Positions 6,344 through 14,995 of a stretch of 32,000 nucleotides of DNA are shown here, in pieces. The translations under genes were made by a program, and so were the position numbers. Below the pieces are notes generated by a model that saw nothing but the letters and a program-made list of their open reading frames with translations, was not told where the DNA came from and made no database searches. The DNA is from Opitutia bacterium KCR 482 (GTDB lineage Bacteria; Verrucomicrobiota; Verrucomicrobiia; Opitutales; Intestinicryptomonadaceae): contig CP149973.1 of NCBI GenBank assembly GCA_029269845.2, positions 60,001 through 92,000 on the forward strand. The letters run 5' to 3'. The first letter of the stretch is position 1. Each line of letters begins with the position of its first letter.

Positions 6344-6611
6344 TTTTTTTAAACGCTTCGAATTTGCGCAAAATTGCCGCGCAGGGCGCGTGAAACACAA
6401 CCATATCCGCCGCGCGAAAAAAAATCCGAATTTTTCCTCAAACGCTTGACTTTTTGCGGGAAAAACCGCCCAAAACGCCAAAACTTTCCTCAAACCGCCC
6501 CGTGCGCTTTTTCTTATTCTCCTGCGCAACGCGCGTCTATTCAAACCCGTTTCTTGCAAAACATCGCATACCCCAACGCGAGTAATTGCCGCAGGCAATA
6601 CGAACTAAAAC

Positions 6612-6637
6612 AAAAAAGGCGCGGTTATAGCCGCGCC
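6612..6637 (-). terminator. rho-independent terminator closing the guaB transcript
   Basis: Minus strand: GGCGCGG-CUAUAA-CCGCGCC, a 7-bp GC stem, followed by UUUUUUGUUUU. Confidence 0.75.
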
Positions 6638-6652
6638 GCATAATCACCATGA

Positions 6653-6840
6653 GGAACGAAGTTCCGTCGGGAGGCGCACCTTGCGCCCAGCCTTTTGGGG
6701 GCGGCAAGCCCCCTCCGTTTGCGTCAAGTAGCCTTGGGGGGAGCGGGTGGTGAATTTCGCAGAGCGAAATCCACCCCTGGGGGCACAGCCCCCAAGTTTC
6801 GAGTGGCGCGGCTCGCGCCCCGTGCAGACTGCTAGTCTGC
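6653..6840. other. array of seven consecutive short GC hairpins between the guaB stop and its terminator (function unknown)
   Basis: Hairpins read directly from the sequence:
- 6653-6665 ggaac/gaa/gttcc
- 6673-6687 ggcgca/cct/tgcgcc
- 6697-6713 gggggc/ggcaa/gccccc
- 6745-6776 gggtgg(tga)atttcg/cagag/cgaaatccaccc
- 6778-6794 tgggggc/aca/gccccca
- 6805-6819 ggcgcg/gct/cgcgcc
- 6824-6840 gcagact/gct/agtctgc
Each has a different sequence, and five have 3-nt loops. Confidence 0.6.
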
Positions 6841-8397
6841 TTATTTGGAGGGTTGTTTGATTTCGATGATGTCGTGGGGAGCGCTTTCTTTTTGACCCGC
6901 GCCAGTGAGACGGGTGAAACGCGCATTTTTGCGAAGCTCGGGGAGAGTCTTCGCGCCGAGATAGCCCATGCCGCTCTGAATGCCGCCGACAAAAATCTTC
7001 AAAGCTTCGTCGAGAGAGGAGGAGACTTCTTTGAGAGCCTCGACACCCTCGGCGGTAATTTTGTCGCTCTTGACTTTAAGGTCGTGCCCATAACGCGCGG
7101 CACTGCCTGCTTTCATCGCCGCAAGACTGCCCATGCCGCGGTATTGCTTGTACATCTTGCCGTTGATTTCCATAACCTGACCGGGGGCTTCGGGGCAACC
7201 AGCAAGGAGACCGCCGCAAATCATGGCGTCGGCGAGGGTGAGAGCCTTGACCATGTCGCCGCTCTTTGTAATGCCGCCGTCGGCAATGATTCTAACGCCG
7301 CATTTCTGGGCGGCTTTCGAGCAGACATAGAGGGCTGTGAGCTGGGGAATGCCTACGCCCGCAACAATGCGCGTCGTGCAAATCGAGCCTGGACCTTGCC
7401 CGATTTTGATGGCGTCCGCGCCGCATTCGGCGAGATACTCAACCCCCGCGCCGTTCGTTACGTTGCCGCCGATGAGCGTGAGTTCGGGGAAAGCCTTGCG
7501 GAGAGCCTTGACCGTAGAGCCGACGCCCTCGGTGAAGCCGTGCGCAGTCGAGACCGCGGCGACGTCCAAGCCCTCGTCTACGAGCGCGCCGACGTGGTTT
7601 ATGATGTTTTCGAAATCGACCGAGCCGTCCTTGTTGCGCATCATCGCAATGGACGCGCCGCAGAGAAGCCTGAACTTGGAGTCGCGGGCGTTCTTTTGGG
7701 GAGCTCCGCGCTCTTCGGAAATTCTTTCGATGTCGGAGAGCGTGAAGAGCCCTCGGAGCGTATCGTTGTCGTCTACAACAAGGAGCTTGTGGACGCCGAA
7801 ATGCTCGTCAAAGAAAGCGTCGGCAACGGCGATGGGATCCGCGCCGAGTTCCTTCTGGTTGACCGTGAAAACGTCCTTGCGGGGCGTCATGGTCTTGGCG
7901 ACCGAAAGCGCTGCGTAGCGTTCCTTTACAATGCTTCCTGGGAGAAGCCCCACAAGCTTGTTTTGCCCGTCGACGACGGGGAAAGTGCGGAATCTGAAAT
8001 TGCGGTCGGTTACGATTTTGAGGACGTCGCCGATATGCATTTCGGGCGAAACCTTGATTGGCTCTTGAATCAGACCGTGAATGTAGTTCTTGACGCGGGC
8101 AACTTCTACAAGCTGCTCCTTTTGGCTCATGTTGCAGTGGAGAAGTCCGAGACCGCCGTTGCGCGCCATGCCGATTGCCATTTGCGATTCGGTAACGGTG
8201 TCCATGTCCGAGGAGATCATGGGCAGGGAAAGCTTGATAGAGTCGGAGAGGGAGGTGTCGAGCCTCGTTTCGCGGGGGAGAACGTCGGAGTACTGGGTGG
8301 CGAGCGAAACGTCGTCGTAAGTCAGACCGTAGCCCGCGTTGGAGGTGAAGAACGCGTCGGCGTCCAGAAAGAATTTGTCGTCAATATTATTGCTCAT
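6841..8397 (-). CDS. guaB: IMP dehydrogenase (with CBS pair)
   Basis: ORF 6841..8433(-). Motifs: [21 protein letters not shown], a CBS region ([24 protein letters not shown]), [23 protein letters not shown] and GGITKSGD. The start is ambiguous: ATG 8397 ([10 protein letters not shown]) is preferred over ATG 8433, because a TTGACA-like box sits only 11 nt upstream of 8433. Confidence 0.9.
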
Positions 8398-8532
8398 AGC
8401 TAGATGATTTACCCTCACGGTAGTTAGAAGCATTTTTTTTGCCTGTCAAACAATTTTTCGCAAAATTCTGCGAAACTCCGCTCTACAAAAATAGCCTTTA
8501 CAAAAAAATCCCGCTTGTTAATCGTTTGAGAC

Positions 8533-10619
8533 ATGAAGAAAATACACATTTATGGGAAATATACGCTAATCGCGCTGTCGTTTGCGGCGTGTCAAGTTTT
8601 CGCAAAACCCTACGCGACGCTCGACGGCGACACGCTTAAAATCGGCAACGACGAAATCGAAAGAACCTTCGAGTACAACGGCGGCGATTTGCGCACGCTC
8701 TCGGTTCTCGATAAAAAGTCGGGAATTTCCACTCGCTCTACGGCAAAATCGCCGACTTGGCGATACCGTCGCAAAACGGCGACGCGCGGGACGGCTACTT
8801 CAAAACGCGCGACGTGGCGGATTCGGACGTAGAGGCGGGGCGGCTCGAATGCGAAATCGGCTTCCGCAAGGGAAATTTGGAAGTAAAGAGGATTTTCAGA
8901 ATATACGAAAAATCGCCCGCAATCGCATGCCAAATATATTTCAGGGGAAAGCCCGACGCGCGGGACTGGATAGGCTCGCGCGCGTCGTCGGCTGACATGC
9001 AGAATATAGAGACAATCACGGCGCGGGGCTTCGGACAGTCCGCGCTTGCGCTCGACACGCTGTCGTTTGCGGGTCGCCAGTGGAATCTGCTCGCCGCCGA
9101 GTTTTTCGACGTTACCGACCACCACAACAACCTCGTCCGCGAAGTCTCCGCGTTGTCCTACCGCAAAATGCCCCTGAGGGGCAACATTCTGTTCATGGAA
9201 AACAAGGAGACGGGCGCGGGCTTTTTCTGGCTTAAAGAGTCGCCGGTGTCGCTCGTGCAGCTGGCGTACCCCGCGGCGGACTTCTTCGCCGAGTGGGGAA
9301 AGTTTCTGCTCGTGGGCGCGGGCGTCGACGCCTCCGACATCTCCGCCGACAAATGGACGCCCGCATACGGCTATGTCTTCGGCGTCTGGAACGGCGGCGA
9401 GCGCGAACGCCTGCTCGCGCTGAGGTCGTACCAAAAGAACCTCCGCCGCTTGAAGGAGGGGCGCGACGAAATGGTCATGCTCAACACTTGGGGCGACAGA
9501 GGGCAGGACACGAAAGTAAACGAGGCGTTTTGCAAAGAGGAAATCGCCCGCGCAAAAAAAATGGGCATAACGCACTTCCAAATCGACGACGGCTGGCAGG
9601 CGGGCAAGAGCGGCAATTCGGCGTATGGCGGCTCGTTCCTGAACATATGGGCGAACCCCGACTACTGGAAACCCTCGCCCGAAAAATACCCCAACGGCTT
9701 GCAGACGGTCGTAGACGCTGCCCGCAACGCGGGAATCGAGCTTTGCCTGTGGTTCAATCCGAGCTGGCCAGACGACTTCGCCGACTGGCAAAAGGACGTC
9801 GCCGCCCTTACTTCGCTCTACGACAAATTCGGAATCCGCACGTTTAAAATCGACGGAATGAAAATCCGCACAAAGCTCGCCGAAGAGCGCGTCCGCGCCA
9901 TGTTCGACGCCGTTTTGGCGCACACAAAGGGCCGCGCCGTGCTGAACCTCGACGTCACCGCGGGGCGCAGGGGCGGGTATTTCTCGTACTCGAAATACGG
10001 CAACATATTTTTGGAAAACCGCTATACCGACTGGCAAAACTACTACCCGTACTGGACGCTCCGCAACATCTGGACAATCTCGAAATACGTTCCCGCCGAG
10101 CGTCTTCAAATAGAATTCCTCAACAACGACCGCAACACCGAAAAGTACGGCGACGACCCGTTCGCGCCCGCAAAGTACGATATCCGCTACCTCTTCGCAA
10201 CGACAATGGCGGCGCAGCCCTTGGCATGGATGGAGGCTACGGGGCTGTCGGACGAAAACATCGAAAAGCTCGCGCCGCTCGTGCGCGACTATAAAAAAGT
10301 GTCGCACGATTTCCACACGGGGACAATCATGCCGATTGGCGAAGAGCCGTCGGGACGCTCGTGGACGGGCTTCCAGTCGGTGAAGTCGCCGACTTCGGGG
10401 TACGTAATCGCCTACCGCGAGTTCAATCCCGCAGCGTCAAAGAAAATGGCGACGCGCTTCGATGCGGGCGCGGAAGTTTCGTTCGAGCCGGTGCTGGGAA
10501 GCGCAAAGGCGTTCAGGGCGGAAGTCGACGCCGATTCGCGCGTCGAATTTTCGCTTCCCGAAGAAAATTCCTTCGGCATGTGGAAATACACGGTGCTTAA
10601 AAACCCGTCCAAGAAATAG
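8533..10619 (+). pseudogene. secreted GH36/clan-D alpha-galactosidase-like glycoside hydrolase, interrupted by a 1-nt frameshift near 8713-8724
   Basis: ORF 8533..8832 supplies a signal peptide (MKKIHIYGKYTLIALSFAACQVFA/KP) and a sensible N-terminus up to ..LSVLDKK, then turns Arg-rich. ORF 8757..10619 in the -1 frame carries the catalytic core: NTWGDRG, THFQIDDGWQ, IRTFKIDGM, ENRYTD. That frame reads sensibly back to 8715 (KVGNFHSLYGKIADLAIP). Confidence 0.7.
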
Positions 10620-10644
10620 GGGTAGGGCTTCCCCGAACGCGAAC

Positions 10645-10813: not shown

Positions 10814-13078
10814 ATGAATATCGAAAACCTAAACGTTTTGGCGGCGTCGGCGTCGCCCGAAATAAACCCCGTCTTTTGGCTCGTGCCGACGGCGTCGATT
10901 ATCGCGCTCGGCTTCGCGCTGGCGTTCTACAAAGGCATGAAAAAAGAGGAGGAGGGCACCGAAATCATGCGGAAAATCGCCCTGCACGTCCGACACGGCG
11001 CGCTTGCGTATTTGAAGCAGCAATACAAAATAGTGGGGCTTGTGTTCGTCCTGCTGTTCTTTTTCTTCGCGTTCTTGGCGTACGGTCTGAACGTCCAAAA
11101 CGGCTGGGTTCCGTTCGCGTTCATCACGGGCGGCTTCTTCTCCGGGCTTGCGGGCTTCTTCGGCATGAAAACCGCAACATACGCTTCGAACAGGGCGGCA
11201 AACGCCGCAAAAAATTCGCTCGACCACGGGCTGCGCGTCGCGTTCCGTTCGGGCGCGGTCATGGGGCTTGTGGTCGTGGGGCTTGCGCTGCTCGACATCT
11301 CGGTATGGTTTTTCGTTCTCAACTATTTTATAGAAGACATTTCGCAAACGCATAAAATGGTCGTGATTACGACCACAATGCTTACTTTCGGCATGGGTGC
11401 AAGCTTGCAGGCTCTCTTCGCGCGCGTCGGCGGCGGCATCTTCACGAAAGCCGCGGACGTCGGCGCAGACCTCGTCGGCAAGGTCGAAGCGGGCATTCCC
11501 GAAGACGATCCCCGCAACCCCGCGACAATCGCCGACAACGTGGGCGACAACGTAGGCGACGTTGCGGGCATGGGCGCGGACTTGTACGAATCATACTGCG
11601 GCTCGATTCTTGCGACTGCGGCTCTCGGCGCGGCGGCATACATGACAGACCCAATCACGCAGATGAAGGCGGTTCTCGCGCCGATGGTAATCGGGGCGAT
11701 TGGCGTTGTGCTTTCGGTTGTGGGGATATTTTTCGTGCGCGTCAAAAAGGGCGCGTCGAGCAAAGAGCTTCTGGACGCTCTGGGGCTCGGCGTAAACGCA
11801 AGCTCCGTGTTCATCGCGCTGGCGTCGGCTGGCATTCTCTATTTGCTCGGTCTTGAAAACTGGCTCGGCAACTGGGGCTCGATTATGGTGGGGCTTTTCA
11901 CGGGCATTTTTATCGGCAAAATTACGGAGTACTTCACGTCGGAGGCGTACGCGCCCACGCGCGGCATTGCCGAACAGTCCAAGACGGGCCCCGCAACCGT
12001 TATAATCGGCGGCATTGGCACGGGCATGGTCTCCACGTTCTATCCCGTGGTGGCAATCGTAGTGGGCACGGCGTTGGCGTACGCGTTCTCGGCGGGCGGC
12101 GAATTCTCGAACATGAGCCAGGGGCTTTACGGAATCGGAATCGCCGCGGTCGGCATGCTCTCGACCCTCGGCATTACCCTCGCGACCGACGCCTACGGGC
12201 CTATCGCCGACAACGCGGGCGGCAACGCCGAAATGTCCGGCTTGGGCAAAGAGGTAAGACGCCGCACCGATATGCTCGACTCTCTCGGCAACACGACCGC
12301 CGCAACGGGCAAGGGCTTCGCAATCGGCTCGGCGGCGTTGACCGCGCTCGCCCTGCTTGCCTCCTACGTCGAAGAGCTTAGAATAGGGCTTGTGAGAATC
12401 AAGGACAGCTCCGCGCTTTCCGACTACGCGCAAAGCACTATCGACGCTTTCGAAAAGCTCGGCGGAAAAATCGAAACAGCCTCCCTTGCCGATTTCATGC
12501 AGGTCTATCAGGTGAACCTCATGAATCCGAAAGTTCTGATGGGCATGTTCGTCGGCTCGATGATGTCCTTCCTTTTCTGCGGTCTCACGATGAACGCCGT
12601 CGGCAGGGCTGCGAACCAGATGGTGAACGAAGTCCGCAGGCAGTTCCGCGAAAATTCGGGAATCATGGAGGGCAAGTCCGACCCCGACTACGCGCGTTGC
12701 GTGTCGATTTCCACAAAGGCGGCACAGCGCGAAATGCTCTTCCCCGCGCTTTTGGCGGTTGCGGCTCCCGTGATTATGGGGCTTATTTGCGGCGTTGCGG
12801 GCGTGCTCGGTCTGCTCGGCGGCGCGTTGGCTTCGGGCTTTGTGCTGGCGGTGTTCATGGCCAACAGCGGCGGCGCGTGGGACAACGCAAAGAAATACAT
12901 AGAGCAGGGCAATTTCGGCGGAAAGGGTTCCGACGCCCACAAGGCGGCGGTAATCGGCGACACGGTCGGAGACCCGTTCAAGGACACGTCGGGGCCGTCG
13001 CTGAACATTCTGATTAAGCTGATGAGCATGGTAGCCATAGTAATGGCAGGGCTAACCGTAAGCTATTCCCTCTTTTAG
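10814..13078 (+). CDS. hppA: membrane-bound proton/sodium-translocating pyrophosphatase
   Basis: ORF 10703..13078; the credible start is ATG 10814 ([12 protein letters not shown]...). Motifs: [69 protein letters not shown] (the Ala form is usually linked to K+-dependent enzymes), [25 protein letters not shown]. Confidence 0.95.
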
Positions 13079-13080
13079 AC

Positions 13081-13236
13081 GGCGCGTGAAAGTACTTCCC
13101 TAAGGGCGTTTCCCTGTGCACCCAGACCGCTCGCGTACATAAGTACGCCACGCGCCCTGTGTGCACAGGAAAGCCACCCTTATGAAAGCACTTTGACGCG
13201 CCTAAATAGTGAGTGCTGGCGCACGAAGATTTTTAG
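13081..13236. repeat. structured intergenic element, copy A (rod hairpin 13081-13202 plus conserved 24-nt tail 13213-13236)
   Basis: It begins 2 nt after the hppA stop. The outer stem pairs 13081-13106 with 13177-13202 (22/26 Watson-Crick). The inner stem pairs 13113-13125 with 13157-13169 (12/13). The apical hairpin is gcgtac-ataa-gtacgc. The strand of any transcript is unresolved. Confidence 0.75.
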
Positions 13237-13260
13237 GTTGTTTTTTGATAAAAGTGTAGT

Positions 13261-13370
13261 AGGGCGTTTCGTCAGCTGGCTAATATTTGTGGAAATCCGC
13301 GTACGCCACGCATCCCGCAAGCGCGTGAAAGCCACCGCCTGAACGGCACTCTAACGCGCCTAAAATTACA
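13261..13370. repeat. decayed middle copy of the same element (no 5' arm, apical hairpin deleted)
   Basis: It is collinear with the full unit from agggcgtttc onward. The core is reduced to cgcgtac-gccacgcatccc, then aaagccac, then a 3' arm cgcctgaacggcactctaacgcgcc and taaaattaca. The 24-nt tail is missing. Confidence 0.5.
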
Positions 13371-13371
13371 C

Positions 13372-13527
13372 GGGGCGTGAAAACGCCCCTCTAAGAGCGT
13401 TTCGCGAGTGTCTCAGACTGCTCGCGTACATAAGTACGCCACGCACCCTGAGCCACTCGCAAAGCCACTCTTATAGGGGCATTTTGACACCCCTAAAATT
13501 ACAGTGCTGGCGCACGAAGATTTTTAG
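13372..13527. repeat. structured intergenic element, copy B (rod hairpin 13372-13493 plus identical 24-nt tail 13504-13527)
   Basis: Same 156-nt architecture as copy A. The outer stem pairs 13372-13397 with 13468-13493 (22/26). The inner stem pairs 13404-13416 with 13448-13460 (12/13). The apical hairpin and tail are identical to copy A, while the stems differ from A by paired substitutions. Confidence 0.75.
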
Positions 13528-13666
13528 CGGGCTTTGGGAGAAAAGTTTAGTAATTGTTTAGCGGAGATTCCAAGATTTTGGGGTTTCCGTTTTTTATTTT
13601 TTCCGTGCAAAGTGGTTTATATAGGGTTGCAATTATCTATGTGGGGTGTTTGAGTTTTCGGTGTGT

Positions 13667-14716
13667 ATGGAAAGTAAAAAGACGACACTTGCGGACATTG
13701 CTAAGAAGTTGAAGATATCCAAGAGCGCGGTTTCGCTGGCTTTGAAGGATTCGCCCATGGTATCCAAGCGTACGCGCGACAGGGTCGCGAAAGCGGCGCG
13801 TTCCATGGGTTATGTCCGCAATGAGCTTGTTTCCTCGATGATGTCGAGCATGAAGAAGAACGCCTTCGGCGCGTTTGCCGAGTCTGTTGCCCTCATCAAC
13901 GGCAACATTGACGAGTATGCCCTCACCAACCACCCGACGCTTCCCAAGTACTACGTCGGAATCAAGGAGGAGGCAAAGCGTCTTGGGTACAGCATAAATG
14001 AATTTTGGCTTCACGACCCGCGCCTGAATGCCGAAATTCTCGCAAAGACTTTCCGTTCGCGCGGCATACGCGGCGGCGTGATAATCGGGCACTCCGCCGA
14101 CAACGTTTTTCCCGCCGAGTACGAGTCTGTTTGGCGCGACTTCTATTTCATTTCCGTCGGCATTCAGACATTCAATCCGACCCTCGAAATGGTTTCCGCC
14201 GACCAGTATGCCGTCGCCTACGGGGCGACAAAAAAGGCGGTGGAACTCGGCTACAAACGCCCCGCGCTCGTGATAGAAAAGCACATCGACGAAATCGTCG
14301 GCGGGCGGTTTGTCGGCGGCTTTCTGCGCGCGCAGTTCGACCTGCCCGCGGCCGACAGAATCGCGCCGTTCACATATTCCGACACGCTTTCGGGCTATGT
14401 AGACAAACTCTATTCGTGGCTCGACAAGCGCAAGCCCGACGTCGTTTTGTACCTGCTCGACTCCACCCGGGAAATTATCGCCGACAAGCCCAGAAACGGC
14501 GGGTGCATACCGCTTATCCAGCTGGAGCGGCGCGGCTACGTTCCAGAATGGACGGGCATGGAACAGAACAACGACCTCGTCGGGCGCGTCGCCCTCAGGC
14601 GTCTTTGCGACATGCTAAACCGCAATCCCGCGCGCGGCGGCGAGGCGTCAAATCTCCTGACGCTCGTCCCGCCGACGTGGATAGGCTCTTCGTCTGACTT
14701 GGAGCAGAAGATGTAG
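13667..14716 (+). CDS. LacI/GalR-family transcriptional regulator
   Basis: N-terminal HTH TLADIAKKLKISKSAVSLALKDSPMVSKRTRDRVAKAARSMGYVRNE, followed by a periplasmic-binding-protein-like body. ATG 13667 is preferred over the GTG at 13646. It lies directly upstream of the sugar operon. Confidence 0.8.
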   Translation: MESKKTTLADIAKKLKISKSAVSLALKDSPMVSKRTRDRVAKAARSMGYVRNELVSSMMSSMKKNAFGAFAESVALINGNIDEYALTNHPTLPKYYVGIKEEAKRLGYSINEFWLHDPRLNAEILAKTFRSRGIRGGVIIGHSADNVFPAEYESVWRDFYFISVGIQTFNPTLEMVSADQYAVAYGATKKAVELGYKRPALVIEKHIDEIVGGRFVGGFLRAQFDLPAADRIAPFTYSDTLSGYVDKLYSWLDKRKPDVVLYLLDSTREIIADKPRNGGCIPLIQLERRGYVPEWTGMEQNNDLVGRVALRRLCDMLNRNPARGGEASNLLTLVPPTWIGSSSDLEQKM

Positions 14717-14995
14717 CGCGCGCTTCCGCGGCACGCGCGCCGCGCCGGGCGGGAGGCTCGGTGCAATGCATAGCGGCTTTTACTCAACTGTACAGTAAAA
14801 ACGTTCTAAATTTTGGTTGAAGTCCGCGGGGCTTTCGAAATATTCGGTTTCTGTTGACGGGGGCGAACGCCGTCGGCGGAAATACCACTTTTGCGCGGGC
14901 ATACCACAAATATGGATTGCGGAAAACCGGTTTTTAGCCTAAGATGCGGGCGTCCCGAAAACGCTTCGGCACAACATTCAAACACGGCGATAATT

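Follow-up and report, generated by a model that had tools for sequence, protein, structure and literature searches.

Rods next to stop codons: a mosaic palindromic repeat family in an uncultured human-gut lineage of the Opitutia

Two neighbouring hairpins whose stems differ by a series of paired base exchanges can be seen in two rather different lights, as an RNA structure that has been preserved in place or as two members of a repeat that have come to lie side by side. Which of the two applies is the question raised by the intergenic region between hppA, the gene for a membrane pyrophosphatase, and the gene for a LacI-family regulator in Opitutia bacterium KCR 482 (contig CP149973.1, positions 60,001 to 92,000; this whole stretch of 32,000 nucleotides, in whose own numbering coordinates are given, is referred to as the window). 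A first-pass annotation had described the two hairpins, termed rods A and B here, as a unique tandem element shaped by selection on structure rather than by copying. In fact, A and B represent two subtypes within a multi-copy family of mosaic palindromic repeats, and this family is undescribed. Rather probably, it is a mosaic palindromic repeat in the manner of the repetitive extragenic palindromes (REP), the bacterial interspersed mosaic elements (BIME) and the enterobacterial repetitive intergenic consensus (ERIC), which provides a hairpin and terminator module for the 3' untranslated region (UTR) and is reshuffled by recombination.

Rods A and B and their relatives

The gene hppA (10814..13078, plus strand, 754 aa, from the open reading frame (ORF) list and the PF03030 gene call in identical contigs) ends with the stop codon TAG at 13076-13078, immediately 5' of the array, and the paired stem of rod A begins at 13081, that is, 2 nt after the stop, as annotated. 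Rod A (subtype A, plus strand, 13079..13203, paired at 13081-13202 with the apical loop at 13139-13142) and rod B (subtype B, plus strand, 13370..13494, paired at 13372-13493) each constitute one long imperfect hairpin. Their tandem arrangement is borne out by a repeat search of the window, which yielded a direct repeat of 187 nt with 74% identity (13075-13261 and 13366-13552), and their structure by folding of both strands, with -73.8 kcal/mol (z -7.7) for A and -77.3 kcal/mol (z -9.1) for B on the plus strand and -92.8 kcal/mol (z -10.6) and -92.9 kcal/mol (z -10.3), respectively, on the minus strand; none of the shuffled controls was as stable. Aligned without a gap (13079-13203 and 13370-13494), the two hairpins share 91 of 125 bases, and among their 52 pairs 34 are the same, 14 are altered on both sides and 4 on one side. 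All compensatory stem swaps listed previously are present, including position 3 (C-G to G-C), position 12 (G-C to A-T) and the apical swap of 13128/13154 C-G versus 13419/13445 T-A. From A to B, 13 of the 14 both-side changes are still Watson-Crick, the exception being 13120/13162, which is T/C in B, while all four one-side changes toggle between Watson-Crick and A.C on the plus strand, equivalent to G.U on the minus strand.

The repeat unit does not end with the rod. A 33-nt tail with its own small hairpin is part of it, at 13204..13236 (plus strand) after rod A, where GTGC TGGC GCAC folds into a small GC hairpin within an A/U-rich outer stem and the 3' end reads GAAGATTTTTAG, and, by sequence comparison and fold, at 13495..13527 (plus strand) after rod B. 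The sequence right after the rods is TAAATAG for A and TAAAATT for B, and from 13213 onward the tails are identical (21/24 compared tail bases). A sigma-54-like reading of the tail (CTGGCGCACGAAGATTT), made by eye, was dropped, as it offers no -12 element and TGGC is absent from other variants of the tail. Both annotated elements are real; a third, partial copy between A and B had been overlooked, of which only the 3' arm (13301-13369) is preserved. This degenerate 'half' unit (13247..13369, plus strand) is tail-less and consists of a left part (GATAAAAGTGTAGTAGGGCGTTTCG...), which resembles a 5' arm only loosely, followed by an intact subtype-C 3' arm; its definition is based on the repeat-finder families D2 and D3, an nhmmer match at 13301-13370 and like units at at least 10 other loci. 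The array is closed by an intrinsic terminator (13560..13601, plus strand) identified in a terminator scan, with a 14-pair stem AGCGGAGATTCC..GGGGTTTCCGTT followed by TTTTATTTTT.

A core search pattern common to the three window copies (GTACGCCACGC, 16 bases, AAAGCCAC, with a core of 19 bases) occurs at about 30 places on 27 contigs of the metagenome-assembled genome (MAG) of Opitutia bacterium UBA4654 (class Opitutia, Verrucomicrobiota) and at 21 loci in metagenomes; the remaining matches had other spacings and were taken as chance. Searches with nhmmer and with a covariance model derived from 20 rods brought up about 50 rods, either full or cut by a contig end, together with many half units, the family scoring 85-139 bits in minus and 50-69 bits in plus orientation (rod A 137.6 bits minus versus 68.5 plus; rod B 133.8 bits minus). 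The element is thus not unique, as the same rods are dispersed genome-wide in about 50 copies in UBA4654 (at least 27 contigs) and metagenomes. No rod homologue was found in viral contigs, in E. coli genomes (ERIC/REP) or in plasmids. The annotated absence of a known RNA family is upheld: a permissive Rfam scan of 12500-14200 gave at best eukaryotic microRNA models with 16-20 bits as compared to gathering scores of 84-100, and at gathering score the sole match in the whole window, the rods remaining without one, was the bacterial small signal recognition particle RNA (RF00169, 3994-4092, minus strand, 62.7 bits).

The window is 91-97% identical to the orthologous region L010 of UBA4654, and its flanks are >99% identical to OGFM01000091.1 (L059). 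The LacI protein is unchanged in 48 blocks of public assemblies, many of them from human-gut projects, and HppA is 85% identical to the protein of Coraliomargarita sp. CAG:312. The host is an uncultured human-gut lineage of the class Opitutia, related to Coraliomargarita sp. CAG:312.

Throughout the family, the unit of about 150 nt is composed of a 125-nt imperfect rod hairpin with the ends ACGG[C/G]GCG ... CGC[G/C]CCT and the 33-nt tail, which is present after most units at other loci in the order TAAAATTACAG, small GC hairpin, GAAGATTTTTAG. The stem of the small tail hairpin co-varies (GTGC/GCAC, GCGC/GCGC, GCGTAGC/GCTACGC). Next after the tail comes GGGATAAAAGT and then another unit, a half unit, which combines an ordinary 3' arm with a different left part, or the end of the array. 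Arrays contain 1-4 units head to tail with interspersed half units, linkers and other hairpin modules, and all units of any locus are oriented along a single strand. A conserved intrinsic terminator closes most arrays seen whole; as the same hairpin recurs at many other loci, it is a component of the repeat module rather than of hppA.

At least five discrete subtypes exist, with copies 70-100% alike. Subtypes A, B, C and D occur within the genus, while subtype E (AAAGGCGTGAAATTGG...) was found in a more distant organism (L060 9459-9582, L065 10405-10519, L050 2933-3004), where the rods begin right after TAA and have a T-run directly 3', and subtype F (L075 3834-3994), with the inner helix ACATTTCGGCGG/CCGCCGAAATGT and a different apex, in a species with 90% HppA identity. 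Divergent rods in more distant organisms indicate that the family is older than the genus. The segments of the stem (outer, middle and inner) occur in nested combinations (L006, L007, L034, L069). The stems of window rod A recur in L033, L053 and L059 and those of rod B in L041, L052 and L069; the swaps between A and B are thus differences of two old subtypes which did not arise at the hppA locus.

Two further observations concern the surroundings of the units. Between the stop codon and the first intact rod, 5'-arm remnants can be present (L007, L010, L022, L030, L011, L055; for example TGA-CGGCGCA-ACGGCGCG and GACGAGGCGTGAAAGCACCTCTCTAACGGCGTTTCTG-ACGG, hyphens marking the junctions), as if new units had joined downstream of a truncated older one, and the octamer ACGGCGCG, which opens the rod, is also found inside the tail. 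Equally, a second repeat block, seen at 6505-6840 of the window and at several loci (L005-L043), is a chain of small GC hairpins, some of them GTAG/CGTC-tagged (for example CCGTCGGGAGGCGCACCTTGCGCC). Its conserved 5' stretch reads GCGCGTCTATTCAAAC, GTTTCTT, about 20 variable nt, CCCAAC and CAGTAATTGCCGCAGGCAATACG, followed by the hairpin GGCGCGGTTATAGCCGCGCC, a layout of a variable stretch and a conserved scaffold, and the block comes after rod arrays at at least 13 UBA4654 loci.

Pairing, strand and turnover

With the covariance-model search and the analysis of covariation across homologues, both proposed in the first-pass annotation, a family was obtained in which compensatory change keeps the hairpin. 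In 20 rods, RNAalifold delineated 47 pairs, and double changes affect 20 of these. For 42 distinct rods, the proportion of stem cells that pair is 97.1%, and both-side changes are seen in 26 of the 47 pairs. The both-side-changed cells of the 42 rods number 294 as compared to 101 in shuffles, and the covariation score amounts to 0.421 as compared to 0.167. Every pairing measure was above 500 of 500 shuffles, for a set composed of paralogous repeats and a shuffle control that ignores relatedness, and structures slid by 1-3 columns scored 0.14 or less. The preservation of structure by paired changes, annotated for two hairpins, extends to 42 rods; the part of the annotation that set it against a copied repeat is not maintained, the elements being dispersed repeat units.

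Variability is distributed unevenly along the rod. The inner helix is the most variable segment, with 24 versions in 42 rods, all of them paired, and the apical loop exists in 18 versions. All subtypes have the internal loops and several wobble positions in common, among them a G.U pair at columns 48/80 in 42/42 rods and at columns 34/94 in 41/42, and the two conserved non-pairs that had been recognized in A and B recur family-wide. Chimeras with non-matching arms are few (L022, L066). In many versions of the inner helix (for example 13115-13121 / 13161-13167), a self-palindrome of 6-10 bp is situated inside one arm (GTGCAC, GCATGC, TGCGCA, GCGCGC), such that each arm could also fold on itself.

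The two strands are not equivalent. The consensus energy is -80 kcal/mol on the minus versus -56 kcal/mol on the plus strand, and G.U stem cells in the 42 rods number 238 on the minus and 9 on the plus strand (24 versus 7 when counted by column pairs). It is apparently the minus strand, be it RNA or single-stranded DNA, on which pairing is protected. A positive GC skew along the direction of the array was obtained at 32 of 40 loci, by which the plus strand of the array is mostly the leading strand. A mutational bias behind the wobble asymmetry was considered and rejected: with a plus strand that is leading and also codes for the upstream gene, deamination of exposed cytosines would yield G.T on the plus strand, and the opposite is seen.

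Units are rapidly gained, lost and swapped between strains. In strains with an identical LacI protein, the spacer between hppA and lacI exists in alleles of 454, 589 (window), 613/614 and 748 nt, which differ by whole units and by subtype. Locus L070 carries a full A unit and one half unit; the window a full A unit, a half unit and a full B unit; L059 and L071 a full A unit and two half units; and L069 a mosaic full rod, two half units and a full B unit. A fifth allele, with a full C unit and a half unit, is found in the more divergent UBA4654 (L010). Several of these differences are readable as unequal recombination between homologous 3' arms. A and B did not evolve together at this locus, since the same subtypes pre-exist elsewhere and the site is filled with different sets of units in strains whose LacI is identical.

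Occupancy of sites is conserved. All 12 of the 12 orthologous sites compared between UBA4654 and the metagenome species are occupied in both, with no empty orthologous site within the genus among those compared; the element is absent only in more distant relatives. The rods of L018/L049 are conserved nearly base for base, and in L034/L051, L041/L057 and L030/L066 the rod interior is swapped on both arms simultaneously. Neither a transposase nor an integrase was found within 10 kb of the window array, nor a gene for a REP-associated tyrosine transposase (RAYT) within that range, and the tabulated flanks of 28 sites gave no consistent target-site duplication. The two bases before ACGG vary (TA, TG, TT, AG, AA, GC and others); the TAA that follows a rod belongs to the unit, and the T[A/G]A that often precedes a rod represents the stop codon and not a duplication.

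Arrays also coincide with larger changes. The downstream flanks of L009 (1350-1900) and L052 (8130-8560) are orthologous (93%) and their upstream flanks unrelated, so that a rearrangement breakpoint coincides with the array. At the end of hppA (13064-13078, the last four sense codons and the stop), the window on the one side and L069 and L010 on the other encode the same SYSLF and stop with five synonymous differences (TCC CTC TTT TAG versus TCT TTA TTC TAA), while the rest of hppA is 97-99% identical among those alleles. This suggests that recombination tracts from the array extend into the end of hppA.

Stop codons and candidate explanations

The flanks of 28 independent sites were subjected to a frame-by-frame stop analysis and an NCBIfam check. 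At about 26 of the 28, a long co-oriented ORF ends between -9 and +14 nt from the first rod or 5'-arm remnant. The stop ends at 0 or +1 in 14 sites, in the form of TAG-ACGG in the window and of TAA-CGG or TGA-CGG elsewhere; at about 10 sites, the ORF extends 2-4 codons into the rod and uses a rod TGA (+11) or TAG (+14) as stop, with rod-encoded C-termini such as -GA or -NGAL. The exceptions are L042, where the array follows a terminator, and L061, which is without an ORF in front. As the upstream ORF stops within the first 14 nt of the first rod, no gene ORF runs through the units. The upstream genes are housekeeping genes unrelated to each other and code for AhcY (adenosylhomocysteinase), Rho, HemB (porphobilinogen synthase), MetY (O-acetylhomoserine sulfhydrylase), PyrD, HisB, GpsA and a TrpB-like enzyme. 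Seven of eight upstream proteins reach within three positions of the end of their NCBIfam profile, by which those genes are not truncated; the porphobilinogen synthase ends eight positions short of the profile end and has rod-encoded residues at its terminus.

In relatives with an 85-88% identical HppA (L076, L077, L078), hppA is without rods, and a spacer of 22-25 nt leads from the gene to a short canonical terminator. In the window, the array consequently stands where the native 3' UTR and terminator of hppA would be, and the plain terminator of the relatives is replaced. The closing hairpin (13560-13601) and the subtype E rods have an adjacent U/T-run. Further downstream, the gene for the LacI-family regulator (13667..14716, plus strand) opens a sugar-utilisation cluster.

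Hairpins adjoin stop codons elsewhere in the window as well. In the IMPDH gene (6841-8433, minus strand), the stop codon TAA (6841-6843) passes without a spacer (0 nt) into the hairpin GCAGACT-AGC-AGTCTGC (stop and hairpin within 6822-6843), and GC hairpins directly adjoin the stops of the LacI gene (TAG-CGCGCGCTTCCGCGGCACGCGCG, 14714-14740) and of a melibiase-like gene (TAG-GGGTAGGGCTTCCCC, 10617-10640). A hairpin at the stop is thus not limited to the rod family and may be a general habit of the genome.

The reading preferred here is that, for many genes, the module serves as 3' UTR and terminator or at the least stands in their place. The array would be transcribed as the 3' UTR of the upstream gene, and by analogy with REP/BIME, ERIC and bcr1, rods and closing terminator would define and protect the mRNA 3' end, and the rods may modulate the termination of translation. 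For REPs that lie no more than about 15 nt from a stop codon, Liang, Rudd and Deutscher (Mol Cell, 2015) are reported to have found stalled ribosomes and a lowered expression. Arrays would evolve by homologous recombination and gene conversion among copies, and array reshuffling would have brought A and B side by side; a single conversion tract that crosses the apex would exchange both arms together, which would give adjacent units of different subtype their 'compensatory' look. Pairing would be kept as unpaired variants are lost, through selection on the folded single strand or through arm-to-arm correction at the DNA level.

Several observations weigh against this reading. The strand present in the mRNA, the plus strand, is the worse folder, and the asymmetry misfits a simple role in sense mRNA; the distribution of G.U pairs indicates that pairing is preserved on the minus strand, and the asymmetry is opposite to the expectation from C-to-T bias on the coding and leading strand. 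Rods A-D are without a U-run directly 3'. Half units that have no matching 5' arm have survived, a fact not easily squared with strong selection on each unit. A generic role as a stabiliser leaves the exact abutment of the stop codon without explanation.

In a rival explanation, the rods are selfish or neutral palindromic DNA without an RNA role, the arms of which are kept complementary by processes at the DNA level such as template switching during replication, mismatch correction in extruded hairpins or gene conversion from other copies; covariation would then say nothing about function. This explanation, considered unlikely, can draw on the capacity of template switching to make multi-base compensatory changes in a single event (PMC8794818) and on the joint replacement of both arms at orthologous sites. 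Equally consistent with it are the hypervariable apical loop (18 versions in 42 rods), expected for the centre of an extruding palindrome, the minisatellite-like behaviour of the arrays and the tolerance of chimeric and half units. However, arm-to-arm correction should erase mismatches, yet the same non-pairs and wobbles are conserved in all subtypes; a strand asymmetry of wobbles is not expected from double-stranded processes; and the strict position and orientation at stop codons together with the replacement of the native terminator suggest that the module does a job.

Fixed unpaired bases and a favoured strand are features expected of a structure-specific site for recombination or transposition of single-stranded DNA, similar to attC or an IS200/IS605/RAYT hairpin, at which an enzyme would read the folded minus strand with its conserved unpaired bases and insert or exchange units next to stops. 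VCR-type attC sites (Vibrio cholerae repeats) with 123-126 nt have a length similar to the 125-nt rod. Such a site, rated quite improbable, would account for variable sequence with a conserved structure and fixed non-pairs, strongly strand-asymmetric fold stability, the location right after ORF stops as for attC in cassettes, the fast change of array content and the 5'-arm remnants with junctions after ...TTAC/TNA, and GTAG- and CGTC-tagged REP-like hairpins do exist in the same genome. Nevertheless, attC R''/R' core sites (RYYYAAC / GTTRRRY) are absent from both strands of all aligned rods, as are GTAG/CGTC tags, the REP and IS200-type signature, from the foot of the aligned rods, and the lack of an integrase or transposase within 10 kb of the window array speaks against such a site as well. 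Core housekeeping genes and not cassettes are situated upstream, sites stay occupied across species, unequal homologous recombination can account for the allele differences and, by GC skew, the best-folding strand is the leading-strand template and not the exposed strand.

A bolder variant, which likewise has only a small chance of being correct, holds that the rods are the working sites of an undescribed strand-specific, structure-reading DNA (or RNA-templated) process which places and exchanges 3'-UTR modules at stops, in effect an attC-like system whose cassettes are the ends of genes and not the genes themselves. Pairing on the minus strand only, fixed non-pairs, the spacing of 0-1 nt to the stop and the fast swapping of units would fit such a process. 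That the rods are free-standing minus-strand small RNA (sRNA) genes antisense to the 3' end of the upstream gene is very improbable, as the significant covariation (of paralogous repeats, in a test that ignores relatedness), the concentration of G.U pairs on the minus strand and a minus-strand fold better by about 19 (A) and 16 (B) kcal/mol are opposed by the lack of any sigma-70-like promoter on either strand of 12900-13800 (0 sites, with the consensus of this phylum not known), a sole minus-strand terminator-like match that lies inside rod B and not after a rod, the multi-copy, mosaic and tandem nature with truncated and chimeric members, unit numbers that differ between strains with identical flanks, and the lack of an Rfam relative.

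Irrespective of the mechanism, pairwise 'covariation' can come from two repeat subtypes side by side, which calls for caution in the discovery of RNAs by eye. An undescribed and unusually elaborate relative of REP/BIME/ERIC is present in a common, uncultured Verrucomicrobium of the human gut, its rods beginning directly at the stop codons of dozens of housekeeping genes, and at hppA, the one locus compared with relatives, the module is found where these have a plain terminator. As arrays differ between strains with identical flanking proteins, they might serve as strain markers, and the wobble pairs on the strand opposite to the mRNA invite experiments. Should the hairpin at the stop affect translation termination or mRNA decay, it would constitute a genome-wide layer of expression control in this lineage.

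Comparison with known systems

By their defining features, the rods are not REPs, not classical miniature inverted-repeat transposable elements (MITEs) and not attC sites, although likenesses to each of them and to other repeats exist. Like the rods, attC sites are imperfect hairpins of similar length which conserve structure over sequence, contain fixed unpaired bases, fold strand-asymmetrically and are located directly after the stop of the preceding ORF. Unlike attC, the rods are without R/L core boxes and a nearby integrase, have core genes in front across the genome and are spaced by 0-70 nt between units, which is not a cassette. An ordinary MITE had been named as the alternative to a novel element. 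Genome-wide dispersal as in a MITE is indeed seen, but the copies are not near-identical, occur in direct tandem arrays and are without a consistent target-site duplication; the terminal inverted repeats of MITEs are present only in a trivial sense, as the whole rod unit is one inverted repeat.

Mycobacterial interspersed repetitive units (MIRU-VNTR, with variable numbers of tandem repeats) resemble the rods as head-to-tail intergenic units which are oriented with the flanking genes and vary in number between strains, and the ends of the MIRU unit overlap the stop and start codons of flanking genes. Unlike rods, MIRUs have units of 46-101 bp, contain small ORFs and do not form long hairpins. 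Repeat-borne intrinsic terminators are known from the inverted repeats of uptake sequences and from TRIT of Mycobacterium. As with the rod module, a repeated hairpin there occupies the terminator slot behind many unrelated genes; rods A-D, however, are far longer than terminator stems and have no adjacent U-run. Mosaic arrays characterize BIMEs as well as the neisserial intergenic mosaic elements (NIMEs), the latter of which have been linked to recombination (PMC3184786); in contrast to rods, NIME units are bounded by 20-bp dRS3 repeats.

The long MITE-like hairpin repeats bcr1, ERIC/IRU, Correia/NEMIS and the Rickettsia palindromic elements (RPE) are dispersed intergenic units of 100-160 nt which, like the rods, consist of one long imperfect hairpin, and they are co-transcribed. 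In the Bacillus cereus group, bcr1 of about 155 bp is transcribed, and compensatory changes keep its RNA structure (PMC3184786). These elements are inserted one at a time, create short target duplications (TA; 5 bp for bcr1) and are polymorphic for presence and absence, whereas rods form tandem arrays, abut stop codons, have no consistent duplication and show an occupancy conserved between species.

The REPs of Enterobacteria and Pseudomonas, which are associated with RAYT transposases, measure 20-40 nt and carry a GTAG/CGTC tag, while the rods measure 125 nt and have no tag at the foot (42 copies); BIME units alternate in orientation, and the rods are all direct. Small GTAG- and CGTC-tagged REP-like hairpins are also present in the rod-bearing genome, and Opitutus terrae is rich in REPs (PMC3733652). 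REPs and BIMEs are located at gene 3' ends, become part of the transcript and influence the stability of the mRNA (PMC3184786, PMC3733652). With these elements, the rods have in common that high-copy extragenic palindromic units are joined by linker motifs into mosaic arrays.

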